Source of the DNA: a virus
IMG/VR virus record: IMGVR_UViG_3300022666_000353
Coordinates: 29,840-93,839 of that record
Reading direction: 5' to 3' (one strand)
Length of the DNA stretch: 64,000 nucleotides
This document shows, piece after piece, positions 12,812 to 59,774 of this stretch. The notes below the pieces were generated by a model that was not told the DNA's origin, searched no databases, and saw only the letters and a program-made list of their open reading frames with translations. Within the stretch, counting starts at the first letter, position 1. Each line of letters starts with the position of its first letter. A program made the translations under genes and the position numbers.

Positions 12812-12883
12812 AGCCGAAGGAGAGATTTGAACTCTCAACCTACCCGATACGAACGGGCTGCTCTACCGTTGGGCTACTTCGGC
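12812..12883 (-). tRNA. tRNA-Thr(CGU)
   Basis: GCCGAAG/CTTCGGC, GCCCG-TTCGTAT-CGGGT, GAGAG-TTCAAAT-CTCTC. Confidence 0.9.
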
Positions 12884-13024
12884 GTACGGGTACGGGCATT
12901 GCGACAGAGGCTCGTTAGGTAGTGGCCCTAGATTTGTTATGCGCTTCCTGCTGCGGCAAGGGGAACCACTCGCGCTTCCACCCACTCCGGCTTGTATCCC
13001 GGTTTGTACGTCCTTGACCCGTTA
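12884..13024 (-). ncRNA. unassigned structured RNA A
   Basis: Closing stem ACGGGT/ACCCGT; AGTGGTTC/GGGCCACT; CTTGC-CGCA-GCAGG; no plausible ORF. Confidence 0.45.
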
Positions 13025-13060
13025 GTTTTAAAAATAGGACACAGCGACCTGTGTCCTTCT

Positions 13061-13172
13061 GCACCAGGTTTACTACCACCTCACGGATACTGTTTAGCTA
13101 TTCGACTATCCGCGGTTCATCGAACGTGCTTTAGCAAGGTCTTCTTTGTACTTGAGAAGACGAGCCTGGTAC
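13061..13172 (-). ncRNA. unassigned structured RNA B
   Basis: GTACCAGG/CCTGGTGC closes arms GTCTTCT/AGAAGAC and CGCGGATA/TATCCGTG. Confidence 0.55.
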
Positions 13173-13176
13173 ATAG

Positions 13177-13244
13177 TAGCGGGGGAGAGGGTCGAACTCT
13201 CTTAAGGAAGGTTATGGGCCTGCCGGGTTCCGAACCACCCCGCT
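13177..13244 (-). tRNA. tRNA-Met(CAU)-like with collapsed D-arm
   Basis: AGCGGGG/CCCCGCT-A, AGG-CCCATAA-CCT, GAGAG-TTCGACC-CTCTC; D region only GTTCGGAAC; 68 nt. Confidence 0.65.
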
Positions 13245-13249
13245 TCAAA

Positions 13250-13453
13250 TCAACTAACTTTTACGTACCTAATTTCTTTTGCTTGTCGTTCTTCCGTCTG
13301 TCCTACGTAGTACGCAGCCACAATCAAAGCATCCACATTGGACATGTCCACGGCCTTACCATACAACTGACCTGCGGCAATCTTTTCCTTAATGGTCCGT
13401 GCCATGAACTCAATCGAAAGTTTCTCTACATCCTGATACGGGCCCATAATCAT
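13250..13453 (-). CDS. hypothetical protein inside the RNA operon
   Basis: SD AGGAG; 67 aa. Confidence 0.55.
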   Translation of the reverse strand: MIMGPYQDVEKLSIEFMARTIKEKIAAGQLYGKAVDMSNVDALIVAAYYVGQTEERQAKEIRYVKVS

Positions 13454-13477
13454 TCTCCTGGTTTTGCTGGCCTAGAG

Positions 13478-13612
13478 TGGTCATCCAGCGCGGGGTCAGT
13501 GCTCGAACCCTTTGTACGGTGCTTCTTCCGTCAGTAGGATTGAACAGCGGGCCTGTTCTCCCCAGCAAGTCCAGTTGCAACGACTGTCGGCTATCACTGT
13601 GTGCCGAATGAC
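13478..13612 (-). ncRNA. unassigned structured RNA C
   Basis: 10-bp closing stem GTCATTCGGC/GCTGGATGAC then CA; arms GAACAG/CTGTTC, ACGG/CCGT, GGGTT/GACCC. Confidence 0.6.
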
Positions 13613-13616
13613 TAGG

Positions 13617-13688
13617 CGGGCTGGGAGCGTCTCGAACGCTCACTTCCCGTTTAAACGGCGGGTGTTCTGCCTAATGAACTTCCAACCC
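13617..13688 (-). tRNA. tRNA-Lys(UUU)-like, atypical anticodon loop
   Basis: GGGTTGG/CCAGCCC-G, GTTC/GAAC, CCCGC-CGTTTAA-ACGGG (G33, C31.A39), GAGCG-TTCGAGA-CGCTC. Confidence 0.7.
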
Positions 13689-13722
13689 GTGTGGACACAG
13701 TCGCCGCTGTGTCCGTTTCGTG

Positions 13723-14082
13723 CTAGTTAATTTCGTGGTACTCCAGCACCGCCACATCGGGGAACCGGACGTAGCCTTCGTCCGCGTCAAAGTAATACAG
13801 TTCTGCCGCGTTCAGCGGGGCAGGCCAACGCTCTTTCCACATCACCACCATTGCGCCCGCCTCTTCTTCCGTCACCGTGCCGGTGGACGCCAGGTAATTC
13901 GCCAGGTTGCGAACCGCACTCAACGCGGCCTCATACTTTTTCTGCGCCCGTTCGAACGTGCCGATTGCGGTGTTCTGCCACTCCTGCCAGGGGCCGTCAT
14001 CGGACAGCACCCGCACACCATCTTCAACCACACGGGCCGTGATTTTCTCCGAACACCAATCTTTCACTACTTCGATATACAC
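13723..14082 (-). CDS. hypothetical protein inside the RNA operon
   Basis: SD AGGAGG before GTG at 14082. Confidence 0.65.
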   Translation of the reverse strand: MYIEVVKDWCSEKITARVVEDGVRVLSDDGPWQEWQNTAIGTFERAQKKYEAALSAVRNLANYLASTGTVTEEEAGAMVVMWKERWPAPLNAAELYYFDADEGYVRFPDVAVLEYHEIN

Positions 14083-14118
14083 GTGTAATCCTCCTAAACT
14101 AGTAGAATAAAGGACCAG

Positions 14119-14212
14119 AGCGGGAGAGTGGACTTGAACCACTACCTCCTCCACTGCCTGTTTAAGCTACCAGTCACAGTGGCGTGCTGTACCGCACTAT
14201 ACACCACCCCGC
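14119..14212 (-). tRNA. tRNA-like RNA with Gly-type acceptor and extended anticodon arm
   Basis: GCGGGG/CTCCCGC-U, D arm GTGT/GCAC, T arm AGTGG-TTCAAGT-CCACT; anticodon arm is 32 nt. Confidence 0.65.
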
Positions 14213-14258
14213 ATAATAGGGACACGGGCAATCCTTAGTCATGCCGCTGTGTCCCATA

Positions 14259-14353
14259 CCGCCCATCCGTCTTTCCCCGTCCTTCCCCGGTCTGGTTTCC
14301 CCTAATCCCTGTTTCCAGGGGAATGGTAGAACTCTCAGTCACGTGATGGGCAG
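14259..14353 (-). ncRNA. unassigned structured RNA D (G-run rich)
   Basis: CTGCCCATC/GATGGGCGG closing stem; CCCTG-GAAA-CAGGG; three GGGGAA repeats. Confidence 0.5.
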
Positions 14354-14357
14354 TGAG

Positions 14358-14443
14358 TGGTGACGGCTGGATTTGAACCAGCATTACCCATGTGGGAACC
14401 TGTTTTACAGACAAGCGCGACTAACCGTATTCGCATCGTCACC
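14358..14443 (-). tRNA. tRNA-Tyr(GUA)
   Basis: GGTGACG/CGTCACC-A, CTTGT-CTGTAAA-ACAGG, long variable arm, TTCAAAT loop. Confidence 0.9.
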
Positions 14444-14479
14444 GTAAATAAACTAAATTTTTGTGGTACACCAAAAGAC

Positions 14480-14560
14480 CAATCTCCGGGGGACTAAGGC
14501 GGTCAGACCCTAGTCCCCCTTTACCTGGAGGTTGAAAATGAAGGGGCGGTCAGACCCCTA
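14480..14560 (-). ncRNA. twin-hairpin RNA E with identical UCUGACCG loops
   Basis: AGGGG-TCTGACCG-CCCCT and GGGGGACTAGGG-TCTGACCG-CCTTAGTCCCCC. Confidence 0.55.
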
Positions 14561-14561
14561 G

Positions 14562-14636
14562 AGAGCGGGGCAGGGGTTGAACCTGCTACCTCCTGGTTGT
14601 CTTACCCAGGGCTCCTACCGCGGAGCTTCCCACTCT
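14562..14636 (-). tRNA. tRNA-like RNA with 9-nt anticodon loop (identity undetermined)
   Basis: GAGTGGG/CCCGCTC, GCTC/GAGC, CCTGG-GTAAGACAA-CCAGG, GCAGG-TTCAACC-CCTGC. Confidence 0.7.
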
Positions 14637-14747
14637 GGTCGAGCGTCCCAGCGTCGTCTGGGTTAGCCGGTCACGTTGGTGGCCTCCCGCTGAACCCGGC
14701 GCGGTACACCTGCCATACCGCTGGCGTCCGTTCACCACATCACTCGA
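14636..14747 (-). ncRNA. enlarged tRNA-like RNA F ending in ACCA
   Basis: TCGAGTG/CGCTCGA followed by CCA; CCCAG/CTGGG arm next to the acceptor; long TGAAC..GCGGTA/TACCGC..GTTCA arm. Confidence 0.55.
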
Positions 14748-14768
14748 AGTAAATGTCCCAGTCCACAA

Positions 14769-14843
14769 AGCCCCGTCAGGGTCGGGTATCTAACCTGGAT
14801 ACCACCACTCTATATTTCAAGAGTTTCGATGGGTGGGCGGGCT
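14769..14843 (-). ncRNA. tRNA-sized structured RNA G
   Basis: AGCCC/GGGCT closing stem; ACTCT/AGAGT and GGTATC/GATACC arms. Confidence 0.4.
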
Positions 14844-14972
14844 TATCACTGGTTTGTCCCTGTCGCTGCCGGTCTGCTTGCCGACTGTCATCACCACTCC
14901 GCGCTAAATCCAGGTGACGGAAAGGAGAGATGGTTACTCCTCTGGCGGGCTGTCTTTTCCAGCGGTCATTGT

Positions 14973-15106
14973 CCGACTGAATTGTGTCCGGCTACCGAGT
15001 TTTTTGATGTGTTGGTAAATGGATTGGGTATGCGCCAAAGAGCCTATCCTCTGTAATAGCTCCTGATAAGTCACCAACACGTCTCTGACCCGTTCCAGTC
15101 AGTCGC
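14973..15106 (-). ncRNA. rod-shaped RNA H with central bubble
   Basis: CGACTGA/TCAGTCG closing stem, A-rich internal loop, GTGTTGGTGA/TTACCAACAC stem. Confidence 0.5.
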
Positions 15107-15113
15107 AACCAAA

Positions 15114-15185
15114 AGGCACTTGAGTGATTCGAACACTCGTCTGCGCCGTACAACCGGCGCGTTTTCCCAATTAAACTAAAGTGCC
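15114..15185 (-). tRNA. tRNA-like RNA with Cys-type acceptor and 6-nt anticodon loop
   Basis: GGCACTT/AAGTGCC-U, GTTT/AAAC, CGCCG-GTTGTA-CGGCG, GAGTG-TTCGAAT-CACTC. Confidence 0.7.
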
Positions 15186-15274
15186 GTCGTCCCTACGTTC
15201 CCGTCATTACGGGTCTATGGGTTGCCTCAGTCCCAACTCTGGAGGTGAACATGACTGGCCACACCTGGCCAAGG

Positions 15275-15348
15275 CGGTGCCGGGGGGGAGTTGAACCCAC
15301 AACCTCCTGTTTTGGAGACAGGTGCTCTGCCAATTGAGCCTCCGGCCC
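15275..15348 (-). tRNA. tRNA-Trp(CCA)
   Basis: GCTC/GAGC D arm, CCTGT-CTCCAAA-ACAGG, TTCAACT loop; acceptor stem imperfect. Confidence 0.85.
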
Positions 15349-15350
15349 GT

Positions 15351-15562
15351 AAGATTGGGACACGGTGAGGTGCCTGAGAATAGCGCCGCGCCAGTTATTC
15401 TTCGTTCGTTTATCGGCCATCTCCTGGACCCTCCTGGTACTGGATGCGCCCCCGCAGTGCCACGTACTACCAGGATTAGAGCATTCCGACTACCCACGAC
15501 ACCGAGGCCACTCACCTAACTTACAGGTCGGTGCGGCTGACACAACCCGTGTCCCAAATCTT
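15351..15562 (-). ncRNA. unassigned ~210-nt structured RNA I
   Basis: ~15-bp closing stem AAGATT(T)GGGACACGG/CCGTGTCCCAATCTT; TCCTGGTA/TACCAGGA and AGAATA/TATTCT arms. Confidence 0.6.
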
Positions 15563-15638
15563 TAAATTAAGTTTTCTTCCCAACGCACCTCCCACGGGTT
15601 CTATGGGTTGCCTCTGTCCCTTCTTGTCCAACTCGCAG

Positions 15639-15901
15639 TGGACCCGGTGGCATCGAAGCCACGTCACTCAGCGCCTTTAGTTCTCCTGATGTAGAGTCAT
15701 TCCCGTTATATCCTGCGGGTCAGGTCTTACCACCCCCACCACCTGGTTACTTACGCGAAGGCCAGGACTTCGTCAGACACAGGTGCTACGATAACTTTGC
15801 ACCCAAACAACTGTTCAGCTAAAGAGACTTCGTCTTTATTGGCTTTTGTTTTTTGTGACTCTCGGATTAGTTTGACACCAAGCTCGAAACCTTGCGGGCC
15901 C
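15639..15901 (-). ncRNA. ssrA: tmRNA, compact (263 nt)
   Basis: 5' GGGCCCG..GGTTTCGA; 3' GAC-GTGGC-TTCGAT-GCCAC-CGGGTCC-A with G3.U70; tag frame ANKDEVSLAEQLFGCKVIVAPVSDEVLAFA*. Confidence 0.9.
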
Positions 15902-23197: not shown

Positions 23198-24157
23198 TTA
23201 CTTCTCCACAGGCAGCCACGGTACGTCACCAGGATTAAGGTGCAGAGATAAAGCAAACATCAGGCGGGTGAACGCGTGCGCCAGGTGGTCGTCTGATTTG
23301 TCTTGCGCCAGGTATCCGTAGATGTGAGAGAGTGCGTGATTTAAATGGTCGTTGATTGAGATGCGTCTCCAGTTGTTAGGCGCATAACGACGTGCCCCGT
23401 AGTCTAACACGTTCGCTAGTGCGAACATGGTCACAGGGTCAATCAGGTCAAACCGGTAGTCCAGCTTTGACTGCATACCACCGCTGGCGCTGACCGCAAT
23501 GGGCGCATCTTTTCCGATGCCCGAAATTTTATACGCCGTGACATCTGGGTAGGCACCAACCTTGCCTTCCTCCAACAAACTACGCATCTGGTCCAAGTTA
23601 TTTGCGATGGTGAACACAGCGGCGATGTTTTCAATGAACTCCACTACCTCGTCCCAAGTGTCCGCCCGAAACGCGTCAACGGTTGAGCCCTGATTATGGG
23701 TTCGGGTAAACAGCACCCGCTTTCCTGGGTGGTTGCGTAAGTTCTCCGGGTTGTCGTCAATAATTACGTCCGCAGGAATAAGGTCCTTGCGGTGGGTCAC
23801 CACGTACTGGGCTCTGTCCGGGTTGCCGTTATTCGCTGGAATAAACCCATACTCCACCAACCAACTAAATTTGTTAGGATGGTCGCGCACGGTCACAAAC
23901 AAGAGCTCGTGGCCTGCCTCCCGTAGAGCGTCTACCCCATCTTTGGCGGTGTATACCGGTGGTACAAAGCGGTACAAATTAAGGTCTTCCAGGTAGTCAT
24001 AAATTTTGGACCCGCACTCCGGCTTCACAAACTTCGTCAGGTCCCACTCTGTAATATCAAACGGCTCTACGGTGTCATCGTAGTCGCGGTTGTACAAATC
24101 CAACCAGGTCGGAAGCAGGTCGGCCACCACGTCGTCCACGTCAACTAGGATTTTCAT
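23198..24157 (-). CDS. 5'(3')-deoxyribonucleotidase (HAD/NT5C) fused to a DUF5664 dNTP diphosphohydrolase-like domain
   Basis: DVDDV, IIDD.P.N, HN; C-terminal RFDLI...VL.YGA..Y...NW...H...DHLAHA. Confidence 0.8.
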   Translation of the reverse strand: MKILVDVDDVVADLLPTWLDLYNRDYDDTVEPFDITEWDLTKFVKPECGSKIYDYLEDLNLYRFVPPVYTAKDGVDALREAGHELLFVTVRDHPNKFSWLVEYGFIPANNGNPDRAQYVVTHRKDLIPADVIIDDNPENLRNHPGKRVLFTRTHNQGSTVDAFRADTWDEVVEFIENIAAVFTIANNLDQMRSLLEEGKVGAYPDVTAYKISGIGKDAPIAVSASGGMQSKLDYRFDLIDPVTMFALANVLDYGARRYAPNNWRRISINDHLNHALSHIYGYLAQDKSDDHLAHAFTRLMFALSLHLNPGDVPWLPVEK

Positions 24158-24621
24158 TTTTGCACCCAAACTGTACGATACTCAGGAGCTTTAAGGTTTT
24201 CTTTGTAAACTTCTGACTGACTGTCCGCGCAGTACCCGGCAACCTGGTCAGCCATGTTGTTGTACCTATTCGGACCATGGGCTTTAATGTGTTCCGCAGA
24301 AATCCGATGACCGCCTTTATTAAGTGTATAAATAAGACGGGCCCAGATAGGTGTGTTTGTAGCCGGAGTAATTCCTAGCAGGACTTTGTTAATCCCACTG
24401 ATAACATACGTACTGTCCGTCATAATTTTTACGTCACACGGCTCGGGTAGTTTGGCCAGGCCGCCAATAACCGCCTCAGTTTCCATGGCGTTATTCGTAA
24501 CCAGACGGGCGTGACCACCCACAATAATGTGCCCGTCGTCTGAGACAATCACGGCAGCCCAGCCACCTTTACCTGGGTTACCCCTACTCGACCCGTCAGT
24601 CCAAATTTGTACTGATTTCAT
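24154..24621 (-). CDS. rnhA: ribonuclease HI
   Basis: TDGS..GNPG.GGWA, TNN.ME, TDS.YV, KAH, N..AD. Confidence 0.92.
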   Translation of the reverse strand: MKSVQIWTDGSSRGNPGKGGWAAVIVSDDGHIIVGGHARLVTNNAMETEAVIGGLAKLPEPCDVKIMTDSTYVISGINKVLLGITPATNTPIWARLIYTLNKGGHRISAEHIKAHGPNRYNNMADQVAGYCADSQSEVYKENLKAPEYRTVWVQK

Positions 24622-24813
24622 TTACACCTCGTCGGAGTTGCCCATCGTGGCCAAAATAAACTGAAGGGTCTGACCCAGAAGATTTTCTAACTGTTCGTCC
24701 GTAATTCCCATAGACTCAGCTAACATCCTCTGCTGTGCTGGGACTTTCAAATCAACGGTCAACACGGCGTACACAGGGTCTTTAAGTACAACCTTTAGCT
24801 TTGCTGGTTTCAT
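24622..24813 (-). CDS. hypothetical protein
   Basis: Translationally coupled ORF. Confidence 0.5.
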   Translation of the reverse strand: MKPAKLKVVLKDPVYAVLTVDLKVPAQQRMLAESMGITDEQLENLLGQTLQFILATMGNSDEV

Positions 24814-25103
24814 ACAACTAACCGTCCTAATCTTGTGATAACCGACACGTCCAAACTTTCTGGAGGAAGTTTCATACGTACGTACAGGGCCTCACGATAA
24901 GCTCGTTCTAATGCAGGTGTGACAAGGGGCTTTCCTGCCAACTCTCCCAGGTCGGCCCCCTGTCCTTTCAAGCGCATTGCAGCACCGTACGCGGCAGCGA
25001 TGTATATCAAAAGGTCGTACGACGGGTCGTCACTTTCTACCGTTAAAAAACCGTCAGTAACCGCCTTAGCGACCTCTTGAATACTCGCGCCGTAAGCTGC
25101 CAT
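24810..25103 (-). CDS. hypothetical protein
   Basis: Translationally coupled ORF. Confidence 0.55.
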   Translation of the reverse strand: MAAYGASIQEVAKAVTDGFLTVESDDPSYDLLIYIAAAYGAAMRLKGQGADLGELAGKPLVTPALERAYREALYVRMKLPPESLDVSVITRLGRLVV

Positions 25104-25504
25104 TAGAACGCGTATTCCTCGTCGTCGTCATCTTTTGAAGGCTTCGACTGGCCGGAGCCGCTCTTACCAGAAAGTTTCTTAAAGTCTTGCAGGGTGAACG
25201 TGGGGTACTCGCGTTCTTCCCCATCTTCAGTCTTGCCTTTCTGGAGGGAAAACTCCGTGGTTACGATGACCTTGTCACCTTTCTTCAGCAGCTTGTTAAC
25301 GGTCTCAGCCTGCGGACCCCAAGACGTTACGCGTATCCACGTCGTCTCCTCACGACCCTCGGCCCCATCCTTTCCGGGAATCCACTTCGTAACCGCGATT
25401 GAAAAATTTGTAACCGCCCGGCCAGACGCCAGATAACGCATCTCCGGGTCCCGGCCTAAGTTTCCAATAAACTGACACTGGTTTGCTAAATTAGCGAACG
25501 CCAT
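25103..25504 (-). CDS. ssb: single-stranded DNA-binding protein
   Basis: IGNLGRDPE.RY..SG.AV.NFSIAV; acidic C-terminal tail. Confidence 0.93.
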   Translation of the reverse strand: MAFANLANQCQFIGNLGRDPEMRYLASGRAVTNFSIAVTKWIPGKDGAEGREETTWIRVTSWGPQAETVNKLLKKGDKVIVTTEFSLQKGKTEDGEEREYPTFTLQDFKKLSGKSGSGQSKPSKDDDDEEYAF

Positions 25505-25531
25505 TACAACACTCTCCTTTCGGGACGCATC

Positions 25532-25588
25532 TTTACATAAGTTATGTTTCTGTGCTATAATTATATAATGGTTTTAATAATTTGTAAA
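25532..25588. promoter_or_regulatory. overlapping divergent sigma70 promoters
   Basis: TTTACA-N18-TATAAT on + and TTTACA-N17-TATAAT on -, sharing the palindrome TATAATTATA. Confidence 0.75.
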
Positions 25589-25601
25589 GAGGGAAAAATT
25601 T

Positions 25602-25847
25602 ATGGGTGTAGACTACAAACTAGAAAGCACGTTGTTAGACCGTCTGTTGTTGATAAACCTGATTAAGCAGCTAACGGCGAAACAACAGGCCACTGTTGCC
25701 CTACGAGCAGCCGGCTACAAACACAAAGAGATTGGTGCGATTTTTGGAATGACGCCTGCGTCAATCGGGTTCATTGAACGCCACGCCTTGCTCAGACTCC
25801 AACAACTTATACGGGAACAAAGCAATGACACAATCACACTTTCATAG
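25602..25847 (+). CDS. stand-alone sigma70 region-4 HTH protein
   Basis: LTAKQQATVALRAAGYKHKEIGAIFGMTPASI...RHALLRL. Confidence 0.8.
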   Translation: MGVDYKLESTLLDRLLLINLIKQLTAKQQATVALRAAGYKHKEIGAIFGMTPASIGFIERHALLRLQQLIREQSNDTITLS

Positions 25848-26097
25848 TTGCATGGCTTGTGGGAAAACAATCACGTGGGCATTCGCAATATGCGAAGACT
25901 GTGAGCGTATTTACGGAACGCGTACCCCACAGTGGCCGGAGTGGTTAAAGTTTCTGTGGCGTGACGAAGCGCGTAAACGCAGGCAAGCAAAACGTCGTAG
26001 CCAGTTCGAAGTTGCAGTAGACGCAGAGGTTCTCGACAACTTACGGGAAGAGGAATCAGGACGCAAAATTGCCGCACTCTTCGAAGAAATGAAATAA
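25825..26097 (+). CDS. Zn-finger protein coupled to the sigma4 gene
   Basis: CMAC-x10-CEDC, then helix WPEWLKFLWRDEARKRR. Confidence 0.7.
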   Translation: MTQSHFHSCMACGKTITWAFAICEDCERIYGTRTPQWPEWLKFLWRDEARKRRQAKRRSQFEVAVDAEVLDNLREEESGRKIAALFEEMK

Positions 26098-27121: not shown

Positions 27122-29050
27122 ATGAGAGCTGAACAATTACAAAGCCTAACAAAACGCGACCCGCTGGCCTTCGGAGTAGCTTACGTAGATTTACTGGAAG
27201 ACCGACACTGGGAAGTATCAACCAGGGCGTGGGCTACAGAAATATACCAGGCAGTCAACCCGTGGTATATAGAGCGTGACCCAATTGGACGCGCCCGGCG
27301 CTTGGTGGTTACGAAATCAACGCAGGCCGGTATCAGTACAATGGCACTTACGAAGATGCTGCACTTTGCCACCAACTGGCCTGTCCGTATTTTCTACACA
27401 CTGCCGCGCCAGCAAGATGTGCTGGACATGGTAACCACACGTATGGACCCGATGATTGCAGCGTCACCGTACCTGCGGTCCAAACTTGGACAACCAGACA
27501 GCGCACATGCCAAGAGAATAGGTGATAGCTATGTATTCTTTATGGAGCTCAGTGTAGAGCCCCGTATGATGCCGGCTGATTCGTTGTTCGTGGACGAGGT
27601 TGACCTGAGTAACCCGGACTTTATGAGCACGGCGCTCAACCGCCTGGATGCTTCCAGATGGAAACTATCAACCTATCTATCCACGCCTACTGTACCCAAT
27701 TATGGCATCCACGGTCTATACAATGCGTCTGATATGCGCCAGTGGTTCGTTAAGTGCCCGGCATGTAATCACGAACAGACGCTTGACTGGGAACAGAACC
27801 TCCGAGTTGTGGGTGCACAAAACAATCCTACGCGTGTGTACTACGCATGTACTCAGTGCGGGGAAGAGTTGACGGTTCCGCACATACAGACCGGGCGTTG
27901 GGTAGCCGAACATCCAGAACGCTCTGACGACGTTGTTGGGTACCATGTCCACCAGATGCTCACTACACCCGCATGGGACATGTACAAAATATACAGAGAC
28001 CCCCAGACTAAATTGGTGGAGTTCTACCGCAAGCGATTAGGCAAACCGTATGAAATTGGCGGAGGGTCTCTCGAGCGGGACGACATCCTGGCTACCTGCT
28101 TTGATGCACCATACGACCCGGAGCCGGGATGGGACGGTAAGTCTACGTACTACCTCGGGGCTGACCAGGGAAACGAACTTCAGGTGCTGGTGTCCAAAGT
28201 CGATAAAAATAGTCGCAGACCGAAGATTGTGCATATCGAACTCATTCCGATGAACAAAGGGTTTGATAGGCTTGCGCAACTTATTGACCTGTACCACGTT
28301 CGAAAGGCTGTTGTAGATGGAAGTCCAAACCGGCATGAATCTATACGGTTGGTAAAACGCTTCCCGGGACGGGTGTTGATTGCAGACTACATTGAACAGA
28401 AAGAACCTTACATTGCCAAACGCGGAATGAAAGAGTTCCCCGACGTTCTTACAAATGTAACCATCAACCGAACAACAGGGTTCGATGGACTGATGGCGTC
28501 TATTAAAGACGGGCAGTGGCAACTTCCAGGAACACCACCCAACCTAAGCCCAGACGTTGAGTTAGTGATTGACCATCTCACCGCGCTTAAACGCGACATC
28601 GAAACCAGGCGCACACAATCCGGCGAAACCCAGGTGGCCGTGTGGCGTAAGCTACGAGCAGAGCACCTCGCGCACGCCTGGTTATACATGAAAACCGCGA
28701 TGGAAGTAGAGAAGGGTCGCACCATGCGTGTCGCAGTTATTGGTAGCCATACTGCATCCGAACCCACGCCTGATACGGGAGACGTGTACAGACCAAAAGA
28801 CGAAACCATCGTGGGTATAACAGAGTTCCTGGCTGAAGTTCCCAAAGAGCAGCTATCAGAGTTTTTGGGGCACTACGCAGCAGGAGAACAATACGACCTG
28901 CCGTTCCCGTTATCCTATAAACTTAAGCGTGTTCTGGACCAGGGTTACGAAGACCAGGACATTGCTTGGGTCATGGAACTTTTAATAAACCAGAAGAAAA
29001 GCGCACCGAAGGTATTGACAGTTGATAGAAACGATGCTATAATTATATAG
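27122..29050 (+). CDS. terL: terminase large subunit (lambda GpA-like)
   Basis: KSTQAGIS Walker A, VDEVD Walker B, STP motif, CxxC insert, GADQG nuclease. Confidence 0.9.
   Translation: MRAEQLQSLTKRDPLAFGVAYVDLLEDRHWEVSTRAWATEIYQAVNPWYIERDPIGRARRLVVTKSTQAGISTMALTKMLHFATNWPVRIFYTLPRQQDVLDMVTTRMDPMIAASPYLRSKLGQPDSAHAKRIGDSYVFFMELSVEPRMMPADSLFVDEVDLSNPDFMSTALNRLDASRWKLSTYLSTPTVPNYGIHGLYNASDMRQWFVKCPACNHEQTLDWEQNLRVVGAQNNPTRVYYACTQCGEELTVPHIQTGRWVAEHPERSDDVVGYHVHQMLTTPAWDMYKIYRDPQTKLVEFYRKRLGKPYEIGGGSLERDDILATCFDAPYDPEPGWDGKSTYYLGADQGNELQVLVSKVDKNSRRPKIVHIELIPMNKGFDRLAQLIDLYHVRKAVVDGSPNRHESIRLVKRFPGRVLIADYIEQKEPYIAKRGMKEFPDVLTNVTINRTTGFDGLMASIKDGQWQLPGTPPNLSPDVELVIDHLTALKRDIETRRTQSGETQVAVWRKLRAEHLAHAWLYMKTAMEVEKGRTMRVAVIGSHTASEPTPDTGDVYRPKDETIVGITEFLAEVPKEQLSEFLGHYAAGEQYDLPFPLSYKLKRVLDQGYEDQDIAWVMELLINQKKSAPKVLTVDRNDAIII
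29015..29043 (+). promoter_or_regulatory. consensus sigma70 promoter inside the end of terL
   Basis: TTGACA-N17-TATAAT with TGn extension. Confidence 0.85.
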
Positions 29051-29735
29051 CATTATTTAAAATTGTTAGGTTGGTCAGTAAACCTAACGCACATACAGCA
29101 ACACACCTCGCTGGGTGGGCCAAGTTTCTGCGGAAGCGCGTAGGCTCCCCCCGGGAAGCGGCTGACGCGGCACCGGTTCCTGTACTTCCTCGTTATCACG
29201 ATAGTGCAGAGACAAACTGGCGGTACGTTGACTGGGCTTTGCCGCCCGCTCAACATCACAGGCTCACCCCAGAGTGAGCGAAACGAGTCTGTGTCCAACT
29301 TAAAGCTCACAAACCACCCGAACCCCCCGTCCTGCTTGGGGGCGTAGCGAAGACCCGATGACACAACGTCGGTCACCTGATAACGGCAGACCTGGGCAGG
29401 TCAATATAAGCTACGCTTTGAATGCAAACATTCTTAACCTCCCCCGGATAGGGGGATTCTACCTACCTGCCGAGGTGACGAGTACGTTATACCCGACGCA
29501 GTACGTCATATCTGTATAAAGGAACTAACAGATATAAGACACAGGGCGGCAGGTGTGAAGATACCCATACTGCGCTGTGACTATCTTATACAGTTAGTTT
29601 CATTAGCACATTTATTCTAAGATAGTACGAATGAATAATAGGCCGCTGTGTAATCTTATTATTATTTTTATGTACCGTCAGGTAGATTGTTACACAGTCA
29701 ACCCCTGTGACTAAGGGATAGTTATACCTATTTTT
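29050..29735 (+). ncRNA. candidate large structured ncRNA (or structured origin)
   Basis: No SD-led ORF; at least 12 helices including GTTAGGTT/AACCTAAC, GCGTAGC/GCTACGC, ACCTGCCG/CGGCAGGT. Confidence 0.55.
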
Positions 29736-29746
29736 ATGGAGGTGGT

Positions 29747-30031
29747 ATGTTTTTAGTGACGAACAAACAGGTTGAGACGTTTGTACGAAAACTCCTGGAG
29801 GAAGAACGCGGCGCTTTTGGCGACGTGGTAGAGGCGGCTATTCAGCACATGCTTAAGGACAGATTGCCAGATTATGTGCATGAGCTGGACCCAAAGAAAT
29901 CTTACATCCTTGTTTTGCCGGAGAGCCTGCCATCGGATGATGTGCAGACGCTGTTGAAATCGCTGCGCGATGTGGATGTTAACCTTTTTGTAGTTCAGTC
30001 CGACAGTGTGAAAATCGTGGAGTTTAACTAA
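29747..30031 (+). CDS. hypothetical protein
   Basis: SD GGAGGT. Confidence 0.65.
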   Translation: MFLVTNKQVETFVRKLLEEERGAFGDVVEAAIQHMLKDRLPDYVHELDPKKSYILVLPESLPSDDVQTLLKSLRDVDVNLFVVQSDSVKIVEFN

Positions 30032-30657
30032 TGGCGGATAAAAGTATTTGTTACCTGGATATTGAGACCAGCGGTTTGTACCCGAACTCCGGGCATGTTA
30101 TTCTGTCTATTGGAGCTGTGGTTGACCGCGGCACCAAGAAGAACCCTATCGCTGAGTTTTACGTAGAGATTGCACCAACGGCTGCGCAGTGGCAGCACGC
30201 TGCTGATGCAGCCTTACGTGTTAACGGCATGACTTGGGAGCGGCTTCAGCAGAATGGTAAGCCTTTTAACCAGGCGTCCGACGAGTTCTCTGCGTTCCTC
30301 GTAGAGAACAAAGTAAAAACAGGTAAGGCCGTCATTGTTGGGCACTACCCTGCGTTCGATATGGGTTTTCTCGAACACTATATGCGCGGAGCACTGGACT
30401 TCATTGACTTCCCAACCTCGGCTGAGGACGTTATTGATGTGTTCGACCTCTATTCCATTCTTATGAACCGGCGTGTTGTTCCCTTCTTGAACCGCAGGCG
30501 TGGTGAAATGACGGCTAAAACTGTGGCGCGAAACCTAGGGGTTCAGGAGGAGCCGGAAGTTCACAATGCTCTTGAAGGTGCCCGCCTTGCGCAGAGGAAC
30601 TACGAACGTGCGATGTCGTTGATAAACACAGGTGGTCAAGATGGTACAACGGGGTAA
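30031..30657 (+). CDS. DEDDh 3'-5' exonuclease
   Basis: DIETSG, GH..FD..FL, HNAL. Confidence 0.85.
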   Translation: MADKSICYLDIETSGLYPNSGHVILSIGAVVDRGTKKNPIAEFYVEIAPTAAQWQHAADAALRVNGMTWERLQQNGKPFNQASDEFSAFLVENKVKTGKAVIVGHYPAFDMGFLEHYMRGALDFIDFPTSAEDVIDVFDLYSILMNRRVVPFLNRRRGEMTAKTVARNLGVQEEPEVHNALEGARLAQRNYERAMSLINTGGQDGTTG

Positions 30658-31128: not shown

Positions 31129-32745
31129 GTGCCGTCGATTTATAGTGTCCGTAAGAAGAAACAGAATAGTGTAGCAATCACACGGTCACCTAGCCCTGTT
31201 ATGGTCGGCGGTCAGTCGTTCTTAAGTCGTGACCTAAACCCAACCATTCTCCGCTTCGTAGAGTTCTGGGAACTGATTGACGTTGTAGAAAAGCATGGAT
31301 ACCTACGGGCGGCCATGTCCGTTGTTGGTCGTTCTACGGTGGGGACCTGGTGGACACTTCGCAGACATGCGGAGTACGGAAAACGTGCGCCAGACAGGCA
31401 CCGTCGCCGGCTGATTAATTTTTATATGCCGAATAAAAAGGAATGGAACAACATCAAGGATTTCCAGACCTTTGCGTATAAGCTGATGATTGGCGCGATG
31501 TATTTAAAATTAGTGGGGCAGGTTGCGTATCACATTATACGTGACGCCAACAATCAGGCGGTTGGTCTTGACCACCTGCCAGGATTAGTTATCCCTAACG
31601 TTGACAGCAGCGGCTATTTTAAAACCCCCGCGTTTGTTCAGTACCCAACCAAAAATCCCAAAGACGCTGTATTCTTCAACAACCCCCGTGACATTGTTTT
31701 TATTACAACGCCAGACTGGCGCGGTTCTCCTATGGGTGGTTCAGACATCGAGGCGCTGACAGAGTATATACTCCCGCTGGATATTTACCTGCAAGTGGCT
31801 GCCCGCGATTACATGAAGAACCGTGACAAGCCAGAGGTGGTGTACGAGTTAGCTCCTGATATTAGTGAAGAGGGGTTCAACAATTTTGTAGAGGAGCTCA
31901 ATGCCCGTCACTCTGGTCCTGCGAACATGGGTCGTAACCCCATTGCGGTACAGGGCGAATTTAAAGTACACGAGCTGCGACCGTACCCCAACTCACTGCC
32001 GTACCAGGATTCTCGTAAGGCTGCTCGGGAGGAAGAGCTGGCTGTGGCCGGCGTCAGCGGTGCCAAAATGGGCATCTCTGACCAGATGGCCAGTGCCAAC
32101 ATTCGTGAGTTGCGCCGCGAGTTCCATGAAACTTCGATGCGCCCGTTATTCCGGCTTATCGAAATCGCGTTTTACGAACAGATACACGTGCGTGAGTTTG
32201 GGTTTATGGGGTGGGAGTTCACATTCAGCAACCCAGATTTCCTGAGCGCCGTTGAGCGTGCCACTGTGGACATGCGGTATCACGATATGGGTGTTCTTAC
32301 TCCAAACGAAATTCGTCACGACAGCTTGGATAAAGAGCCGCGCAAGGACGAACAGGGTGATATGTACGTAGACCAGGGGTCGGACGCGGAAGACTCAGAA
32401 CCGACAGATTACCCAGGCAGTCCTCCAGAAGGCAGACCGGTAGAACCTGACGACCCATCGCAAACCGGTGAACCCACGCTGGACGACCAAGACCCACCGA
32501 GAGGGGACGGTCACGATGAAACGACACGTGACAACGTTCTGCGCGAACTACGTCAGTGGCGTACTTTTGTTATTCGACGTATGCGTTATGGACGTAAGAC
32601 ACGAGATTTCAATACTCGGGAAATTCGCCCAGAATTGCGTGACTTAATTAAAGAATACGTGGGCAGGGCTGTGTCTCCGTCGGAGGTGACGCAGATATTC
32701 AATGAGGTTATCGAAGCAGTAGAGGAGGCTTACGATGCAAGCTAA
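31129..32745 (+). CDS. portal protein (HK97-like)
   Basis: G.S.IEA, HSGPANMG, GVLTPNEIR; position after terminase. Confidence 0.85.
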   Translation: MPSIYSVRKKKQNSVAITRSPSPVMVGGQSFLSRDLNPTILRFVEFWELIDVVEKHGYLRAAMSVVGRSTVGTWWTLRRHAEYGKRAPDRHRRRLINFYMPNKKEWNNIKDFQTFAYKLMIGAMYLKLVGQVAYHIIRDANNQAVGLDHLPGLVIPNVDSSGYFKTPAFVQYPTKNPKDAVFFNNPRDIVFITTPDWRGSPMGGSDIEALTEYILPLDIYLQVAARDYMKNRDKPEVVYELAPDISEEGFNNFVEELNARHSGPANMGRNPIAVQGEFKVHELRPYPNSLPYQDSRKAAREEELAVAGVSGAKMGISDQMASANIRELRREFHETSMRPLFRLIEIAFYEQIHVREFGFMGWEFTFSNPDFLSAVERATVDMRYHDMGVLTPNEIRHDSLDKEPRKDEQGDMYVDQGSDAEDSEPTDYPGSPPEGRPVEPDDPSQTGEPTLDDQDPPRGDGHDETTRDNVLRELRQWRTFVIRRMRYGRKTRDFNTREIRPELRDLIKEYVGRAVSPSEVTQIFNEVIEAVEEAYDAS

Positions 32746-56899: not shown

Positions 56900-56928
56900 T
56901 TGACAGGAACGTGTTTTGTCGCTATAAT
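56900..56928 (+). promoter_or_regulatory. consensus sigma70 promoter
   Basis: TTGACA-N17-TATAAT. Confidence 0.8.
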
Positions 56929-56972: not shown

Positions 56973-57350
56973 ATGCGTAATCGTAACAACAATCCTGTCG
57001 CTGTCGCGTCCCGTGGATTGTACAGCGTAGAACTTACCAAGAGTGAGCGATTAATCGTATCCTGGGTGCTCGGGTCAATTGAAGGTATGGGCCGGGACGA
57101 CTCACGTAAGGCTGCCGCGGTCATCGAAGAACTTGACCTGGAGAATCTGGGGGATGTTACGCCGGAACAGCTCAACGACGCGGAGAGCTACAAACTCTCT
57201 GGCTACGAAATCCGCTTTGTTGCGGACGAGCTTGACAAAATGTGGGACCAGAAGAAAGTCCGGGCCAGCCAGGCGAAGCCTGCTGTGTCGCTGTATGACA
57301 AACTCAAAGCAGCGATGGAGACCAAGGAAACCGATAACGCGGCTGAATAA
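56973..57350 (+). CDS. hypothetical protein with its own promoter and terminator
   Basis: SD AGGAGG; terminator at 57370-57399. Confidence 0.7.
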   Translation: MRNRNNNPVAVASRGLYSVELTKSERLIVSWVLGSIEGMGRDDSRKAAAVIEELDLENLGDVTPEQLNDAESYKLSGYEIRFVADELDKMWDQKKVRASQAKPAVSLYDKLKAAMETKETDNAAE

Positions 57351-59745: not shown

Positions 59746-59774
59746 TTGACATGCTTAGGTATTCATGCTATAAT
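59746..59774 (+). promoter_or_regulatory. consensus sigma70 promoter
   Basis: TTGACA-N17-TATAAT with TGn extension. Confidence 0.85.

Follow-up and report, generated by a model that had tools for sequence, protein, structure and literature searches.

A putative RNA transcription unit with an EGFOA-type core between the terminase and portal genes of a temperate phage lineage

The virus record IMGVR_UViG_3300022666_000353 (IMG/VR) was analysed over a window of 64,000 nucleotides (nt), corresponding to positions 29,840 to 93,839 of the record and numbered here from its first letter, in which 696 nt (29051-29746) separate the large terminase gene, TerL, from p94, an open reading frame (ORF) of 94 amino acids (aa). 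On balance, this gap as a whole is best explained as an RNA transcription unit. Judged by covariance-model matching, the core of the RNA very probably belongs to EGFOA (RF02955), and the gap RNA would then be an enlarged variant of a known orphan family, not a new class. A first-pass annotation made from the sequence alone had proposed a large structured non-coding RNA on the plus strand, transcribed from a promoter within the 3' end of terL; this proposal is upheld, since promoter and RNA alike are retained at the syntenic locus and the RNA shows abundant covariation.

The comparative evidence comes from 14 further lineages found through TerL searches (TerL identity 49-70%) in viral contigs, metagenomes and one Chloroflexia metagenome-assembled genome; these are cited by locus handles (L047 and the like), and counts out of 15 refer to the window plus these relatives, all of them uncultured. 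The order TerS-like gene, TerL, gap, p94, exonuclease, zinc-ribbon protein and portal is kept in 14/14 relatives, with p94, the exonuclease and the zinc-ribbon protein being facultative. Searching the window with cmscan identified the core as EGFOA, a catalogued family that the first-pass annotation had missed. No other non-tRNA match in the window exceeds its cut-off, and no second EGFOA copy occurs in the 93.8-kb virus record; a local search of 28500-30300 returned the match with E = 1.7e-5. Rfam EGFOA scores above the cut-off were also obtained elsewhere, for L002 (49.0 bits), L042 (42.9 bits) and L068 (41.7 bits). The core and the domain that extends it consist of the following elements.

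29311-29416, plus strand: match to Rfam EGFOA (RF02955), 40.8 bits (gathering score 37.7), covering model positions 1-108
29257-29416, plus strand: extended EGFOA domain, matched by model R1 (see below) in 9 relatives
29257-65 / 29285-93, plus strand: helix A, arms different in every lineage
29274-79 / 29305-10, plus strand: helix B, arms different in every lineage
29268-72, plus strand: strand CCCAG, pairing with CUGGG at 29392-96 in the P4 loop, with compensatory changes
29327-34, plus strand: CCGUCCUG, closed by the CCCC/GGGG helix P1' (29325-28 / 29338-41)
29342-48 / 29410-16, plus strand: helix P2, enclosing two hairpins
29352-74, plus strand: hairpin P3, within P2
29375-79 / 29397-401, plus strand: hairpin P4, within P2

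In this domain, the terminal loop at 29380-29396 reads AUAACGGCAGACCUGGG, in which the core GCAGACCUGGGC is exact and the conserved GUAA-NN-GCAGACCUGGG is present. CCCAGA (29268-73) and CCGUCCUG are both present, about 50 nt apart, and cmscan placed the model's CCcAG elsewhere. The insert between these two strands is occupied by a pseudoknot: ACAGGCUC (29258-65) pairs with GAGUCUGU (29285-92) and GUGAGC pairs with the downstream GCUCAC (29305-10), such that helix A encloses the CCCAG strand and helix B starts inside the loop of A and ends beyond it. A P1 hairpin directly after CCGUCCUAGU is absent in the window, where cmscan deletes model positions 28-41; this absence was not taken as excluding EGFOA membership, P1 being a variable element of the model. 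The eight helices listed by the first-pass annotation all exist where it had placed them, with the qualification that its GCTCAC/GTGAGC local hairpin (29262-67 / 29274-79) differs from the pairing that the relatives retain and is an alternative possible in the window only.

The window sequence alone (29256-29425) served to build a covariance model, R1, comprising helices B, P1', P2, P3 and P4. It gave full-length matches to the 170-nt domain in 9 relatives, at the syntenic place and on the TerL strand, with E = 2e-13 to 1e-5. In the resulting alignment, 95.1% of the cells form standard pairs, compared with 31-42% when the partners are slid by 1-3 columns, and the covariation score is 0.522, compared with at most 0.068 in the slid controls; both sides are changed in 23/35 pairs, and 0/500 shuffles reach the observed values. 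This alignment is fitted to the model and thereby favours the structure; the slid controls and the diversity of pair types nonetheless speak for a real structure. In P2, for example, 7/7 pairs are changed on both sides and 98.4% of the cells are paired; 6/8 pairs are compensatory in P3 and 4/5 in P4. The test of covariation at the syntenic locus that the first-pass annotation had named thus came out in its favour across the window and the 9 relatives. The pairing between the 5' strand and the P4 loop also varies in concert, CCCAG:CUGGG becoming CCCAA:UUGGG in L053 and UCCAG:CUGGA in L058, L060 and L056; therefore, this loop-strand pseudoknot has undergone at least two independent compensatory changes.

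A further model, R3, was rebuilt from ten aligned sequences of the subfamily. It finds the divergent relatives L058 and L059 and, in unrelated phages, the canonical EGFOAs L045, L044, L043 and L041 (E = 1e-7 to 2e-4); subfamily and family thus recognise each other. No domain was detected by Rfam in L053, L056, L058, L060 and L061 at E up to 5, and R3 gave no match in L056, L060 and L061, where the core is seen as a motif only. Two of the canonical copies, L043:470-566 and L044:6909-7006, are slightly different from each other and lie at the two ends of one 37-kb viral contig (G019), with near-identical upstream sequence; either the contig is terminally redundant and the copies reflect variation between strains, or the RNA gene has been duplicated.

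Upstream of the EGFOA domain lie a promoter and a separate 5' domain.

29015-29043, plus strand: sigma-70-type promoter TTGACA-N17-TATAAT with a TG extension, 12/12 consensus matches
29051-29256, plus strand: 5' domain, compared with that of the relatives by motif, spacing and topology
29064-29089, plus strand: hairpin H1 with loop GGUCAGUA, at the start of the 5' domain
29162-29166, plus strand: CUGAC, complementary to the H1 loop
29181-29208 and 29227-29254, plus strand: two further hairpins of the 5' domain, which also contains a multi-stem junction

The promoter, which the first-pass annotation had already read as perfect, overlaps the last TerL codons (the stop codon is 29048-29050), and transcription is predicted to start at about 29050-29052. 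In 13 of the 15 lineages, a near-consensus promoter, mostly with a TG extension, is located no more than about 20 nt from the TerL stop. L047 and L052 depart from this pattern: the former combines an extended -10 element with a poor -35 element, and the latter lacks the 5' part. H1 starts 17-22 nt past the -10 element in 7 of 9 sequences, and this spacing, together with the retention of the promoter in 13 of the 15 lineages, indicates that promoter and RNA form one unit. Sites with at most one mismatch to the consensus number about 10 in the window, compared with about 0.4 expected by our own rough estimate, an excess from which we conclude that the phage really uses this promoter type. Other perfect promoters (TTGACA-N16/17-TATAAT) are located at 56900-56928 and 59746-59774 on the plus strand, where they mark gene boundaries of the late arm, and at 110-83 on the minus strand. 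In L052 (the same locus as L002; 5250-5400), both the promoter and H1 are lacking, and a shorter TerL (600 aa) leads directly into the central part of the 5' domain; the RNA could be made there only within the TerL transcript, or the contig could carry a deletion.

Within the 5' domain, 9 sequences share an H1 whose (G)GUC(A/G)G loop is enclosed by stems of 5-11 base pairs that all differ in sequence, and the complement of this loop, CUGAC, follows 91-129 nt past the inferred start. L047 pairs GGUCGG with CCGAC, a double change in the loop-strand pair, and further helices between the elements of the 5' domain covary among the relatives. Downstream of the EGFOA domain, the gap contains a conserved hairpin and a long tail.

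29440-29456, plus strand: C-run/G-run hairpin UCCCCC-GGAUA-GGGGGA, the 3' edge of the conserved RNA
29457-29746, plus strand: lineage-specific structured tail of about 290 nt, reaching up to the p94 ribosome-binding site
29465-72 / 29547-54, plus strand: complementary 8-mers in the tail
29581-88 / 29618-25, plus strand: hairpin in the tail
29634-63, plus strand: weak AU-rich terminator-like hairpin in the tail, followed by a U-run at 29664-72
29646-53 / 29690-97, plus strand: competing helix in the tail

A YUCCCCC...GGGGGGAR helix with an insert of 5-60 nt is found 3' of the EGFOA domain in the window and in L047, L048, L053, L055, L056, L060, L062, L063 and L068, and variant forms are found in L052 and L057. 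The sequence of this hairpin is conserved and shows no covariation; it may serve as a 3'-end stabiliser or as a terminator without a U-tract. Of the full 650-700 nt, therefore, only about 410 nt (29051-29456) make up the conserved RNA. In the tail, the 8-mers ACCTGCCG and CGGCAGGT are complementary, lie outside the minimum-energy fold and belong to a region without a homologue.

Folding of the gap points to the same strand. The plus strand gives -240 kcal/mol (z = -5.96 compared with shuffles), the minus strand gives z = -1.90, and the sub-regions 29417-29640 and 29051-29257 give z = -4.44 and z = -2.18, respectively; all covariance-model matches are on the TerL strand. The claim of about 700 nt without a credible ORF was borne out. 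That the gap encodes unannotated small proteins is barely credible: ORFs of 34-107 aa do occur on both strands, but none is longer, and they show no Shine-Dalgarno sequence, no Pfam match and no conservation in the 14 relatives, in more than 10 of which the control, p94, was found. The single gap-ORF match, at E = 6e-4, covers the invariant nucleotides of the EGFOA loop. The small ORFs were therefore rejected as coding.

EGFOA RNAs have been described as putative small RNAs that lie in gene-free regions of unusual size, and electron cryo-microscopy (cryo-EM) of two members has revealed a trimer, with a hexamer class, and a strand-exchanged dimer (preprint 10.64898/2026.07.01.735769). The same preprint assigns no biological function to EGFOA and attributes the motif to its reference 41, Weinberg et al. 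2017 (PMC5737381), the main text of which contains no mention of EGFOA. In the mechanism that we infer for the present locus, host RNA polymerase would start at the consensus sigma-70 promoter on the TerL stop codon, and the product would be a multi-domain, multiply pseudoknotted RNA composed of the 5' domain, the extended EGFOA domain, the C/G hairpin and the lineage-specific tail. H1 would present its GGUCAG loop to the downstream CUGAC; in the extended EGFOA domain, the A/B pseudoknot would form between the two conserved 5' strands and CCCAG would pair with the loop sequence CUGGG. The effect of the RNA would come from its fold, antisense pairing playing no part. Cleavage or termination would release the RNA from a transcript otherwise reading on into p94 and portal, and it would accumulate as a stable particle, possibly a homo-oligomer as seen by cryo-EM for two EGFOA RNAs. 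Its target in trans, during induction or infection, would be a component of either the host or the phage.

The TerL-portal slot looks like a stable-RNA island in the relatives. L058 (5247-5382) and L060 (5138-5275) carry a promoter, a tRNA, a second promoter and an EGFOA-like RNA in this slot, and five tRNAs lie downstream in that of L061 (6177-8276). The canonical EGFOA copies occur in other surroundings, namely after a Toprim/AAA_25 primase-helicase gene, between DUF6551 and M23 peptidase genes, and near a helix-turn-helix (HTH)/HNH gene; a general link between EGFOA and terminase was rejected, the other viral copies being in unrelated contexts. Because the slot behaves in this way, because the EGFOA contexts are unrelated and because the candidate terminator/antiterminator of the gap is not conserved, a stable, trans-acting folded RNA, with which the preprint's description of EGFOA as oligomerising putative small RNAs also agrees, is favoured as the mechanism over a cis-acting leader; we give it about an even chance of being correct.

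Several observations weigh against this reading. The perfect promoters at 56900 and 59746 drive ordinary genes through short leaders, to ORFs at 56973 and 59804. A terminator scan of the plus strand found no canonical intrinsic terminator between the RNA and p94 in the window, L053 and L057; given these two facts, transcripts from 29050 probably run, at least in part, into p94 and portal, and such likely read-through would fit a leader equally well. The last approximately 290 nt, i.e., the tail, show no similarity to the relatives and are not conserved. The 5' domain of the window is larger than the relatives' version, without primary-sequence similarity found between them, and model R2, built from the 5' domain of the relatives, finds L062 and L068, finds others weakly and does not find the window; MAFFT alignments of this domain were too inconsistent to seed a better model. 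The proposed homology is consequently one of motif, spacing and topology, and the window's domain would be linked to its counterparts by motif, position and topology only. Finally, the oligomerisation of EGFOA, to which the proposed particle is likened, is known in vitro only and for two other members.

The gap RNA might alternatively be a cis-acting leader, that is, a structured 5' untranslated region of the p94-(exonuclease)-portal transcript that controls this transcript co-transcriptionally. Such a leader could work by attenuation, with the terminator-like element at 29634-29672 opposed to the helix 29646-53 / 29690-97, or, like EAR or the put RNAs of HK022, by modification of the polymerase so that late transcription resists terminators. 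In its favour, p94 and portal always follow the RNA directly and in the same orientation, no canonical terminator precedes p94, mutually exclusive helices adjoin the U-run, other consensus promoters of the phage drive protein genes, and canonical EGFOA copies also lie inside co-oriented gene strings. Nevertheless, the candidate terminator/antiterminator is in the non-conserved tail, beyond the end of the conserved part at 29456; L058 and L060 have a tRNA and a second promoter interposed, and L061 a tRNA array; about 410 nt with three pseudoknots far outsizes the antitermination and attenuation RNAs that are generally known; and both Rfam and the preprint 10.64898/2026.07.01.735769 class EGFOA as a small RNA of gene-free regions. 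We regard a leader as possible but rather unlikely. Regarding HK022 put/EAR specifically, the topology alone fits (promoter, structured RNA and long co-oriented operon), and no antitermination family of this type was matched by Rfam in the local search.

The position of the gap also raises the question of packaging, in which the RNA would form an oligomer or ribonucleoprotein with terminase, portal, p94 or the exonuclease, as does the packaging RNA (pRNA) of phi29. The RNA gene is invariably between TerL and portal in the 15 lineages, p94 follows it in most relatives, and EGFOA RNAs form trimers, hexamers and dimers in vitro (10.64898/2026.07.01.735769). The phi29 pRNA is an oligomerising RNA tied by function to the portal and packaging ATPase, whereas the gap RNA is tied to these by gene position only, and Rfam gave no match to any pRNA family at E up to 10 in 28500-30300. 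The pRNA is known from phi29-like phages only, whose packaging ATPase is small, and no phage with a GpA-type terminase is known to need one; the TerL encoded here is a full-size GpA-type terminase. Canonical EGFOA copies of other phages have surroundings of replication or lysis, after the primase-helicase gene or between the DUF6551 and M23 peptidase genes, the model of p94 has no significant match to an RNA-binding fold, and the exonuclease is absent from four relatives that have the RNA. Taken together, these points make a role in packaging very unlikely. The partnership with the DEDDh exonuclease proposed in the first-pass annotation found no support and was rejected, the relatives lacking the enzyme but keeping the RNA being L053, L057, L058 and L060; the enzyme is thus no obligate partner.

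The other function suggested at the outset, a transcription-primed replication origin, is highly improbable and was likewise rejected. A strong promoter does fire into a structured, GC-variable non-coding tract, and the first-pass annotation credits the phage with an RNase H, the matches obtained for such an enzyme being the weak RNase_H-superfamily ones of the exonuclease; nonetheless, there are no iterons or repeated boxes in the tract, only one AT-rich 17-nt repeat in two copies, and no local skew inflection, the cumulative GC skew reaching its minimum not at 29 kb but near 25-26 kb, at the divergence of the transcription arms. In addition, the conservation is of the RNA type, with compensatory base-pair changes on one strand, a pattern that would not arise from selection on a DNA element. 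The skew minimum and the switch from minus- to plus-strand genes fall together at about 24000-26000 of the window, 3-4 kb upstream of the gap RNA.

Set beside canonical EGFOA, the gap RNA shares a score above the gathering threshold, the P2 helix enclosing two hairpins, the terminal loop (G/A)UAA-NN-GCAGACCUGGG, the 5' strands CCCAGA and CCGUCCUG, its recovery of canonical copies through R3, and its setting as a phage-borne RNA in a gene-free tract, catalogued without function. It differs in the approximately 50-nt A/B pseudoknot between CCCAGA and CCGUCCUG, which are a few nucleotides apart in canonical copies; in the replacement of the canonical P1 hairpin by a CCCC/GGGG helix (CUCC/GGAG in L057, L058 and L060) closing the CCGUCCUG loop; in the extra 5' domain of about 200 nt with its own loop-strand pairing; in the conserved C/G hairpin; in the fixed slot from the TerL stop to p94 with a consensus promoter; and in a total length of 410-700 nt, compared with the 108-position Rfam model. 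The RNA also resembles GOLLD and ROOL, which are large, ornate, phage-borne and often tRNA-adjacent RNAs and have been shown to multimerise. Their conserved motifs and size differ from those of the gap RNA, and Rfam matched neither family in the local search (E up to 10) or across the whole window (gathering score).

The genes around the gap are as follows.

27122-29050, plus strand: large terminase gene TerL, 642 aa, GpA-type ATPase domain (Pfam GpA_ATPase, E = 1.2e-26), with the promoter in its last codons
29747-30031, plus strand: p94, a 94-aa ORF with a strong ribosome-binding site and homologues in relatives
30031-30657: DEDDh/RNase_T-type exonuclease, 3' of p94, with weak matches to the RNase_H superfamily
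31129-32745: portal gene, 3' of the zinc-ribbon protein, which itself follows the exonuclease

Homologues of p94, found in at least 10 relatives, share the motif ELDPxKxYILVxPE ... VKLLEL. The protein has no Pfam match and weak PHROG matches only, which are of unknown function. Its AlphaFold2 model (predicted local distance difference test, pLDDT, 74) has no Foldseek match below E = 0.05; the weak Foldseek list is rich in k-turn binders of the L7Ae/L30e/eS12 type, none of them significant, and VIA-align gives no confirmation, with a best Z of 4.8, to unrelated folds, among 48,161 chains.

The phage lineage is temperate and its host is probably a member of the Chloroflexota, since a tyrosine integrase is encoded at the left end of the virus record (G000:C1:361-897, outside the window), the record is classed as a provirus, and the relative L068 is embedded in a 255-kb host contig. 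EGFOA is present in 1 of 151 sampled Chloroflexota genomes, the one that contains the related provirus. Among deposited phages, no close cultured phage was found, the best TerL protein match having at most 28% identity; a nucleotide search with the gap region gave no match, and a query with the 33-nt core returned nothing useful. Elsewhere in the window, ARAGORN and Rfam identified a tRNA cluster, including one tRNA with an aberrant anticodon loop, and a 264-nt gene like that of transfer-messenger RNA (30-aa tag) on the minus strand (12812-15901).

Oligomeric structures have been solved for EGFOA, a catalogued RNA class without known biology, and the promoter, slot and covariation are unusually clear for the variant described here. 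This locus gives EGFOA a defined transcription unit, which has a fixed place between terminase and portal, a probable 5' end and a promoter of consensus type, and provides about 15 syntenic relatives with rich covariation; it corrects the 5' boundary of the motif for this subfamily and indicates that an RNA of at least 410 nt with several pseudoknots can have the 108-nt motif as its core. Concrete tests of a trans-acting particle against a cis-acting leader thereby become possible for EGFOA. We consider it improbable that EGFOA RNAs are co-transcriptional devices as opposed to free small RNAs, or that the gap RNA and p94 together form a particle acting at the terminase-portal step. In the former case, the fold, emerging just past the host-type promoter on the TerL stop, could load onto or alter the polymerase in a put-like manner, or alter its transcript, and the 35-kb co-oriented string of head and tail genes would be expressed without a canonical late activator; either of the two, if true, would be the first function for this orphan class.

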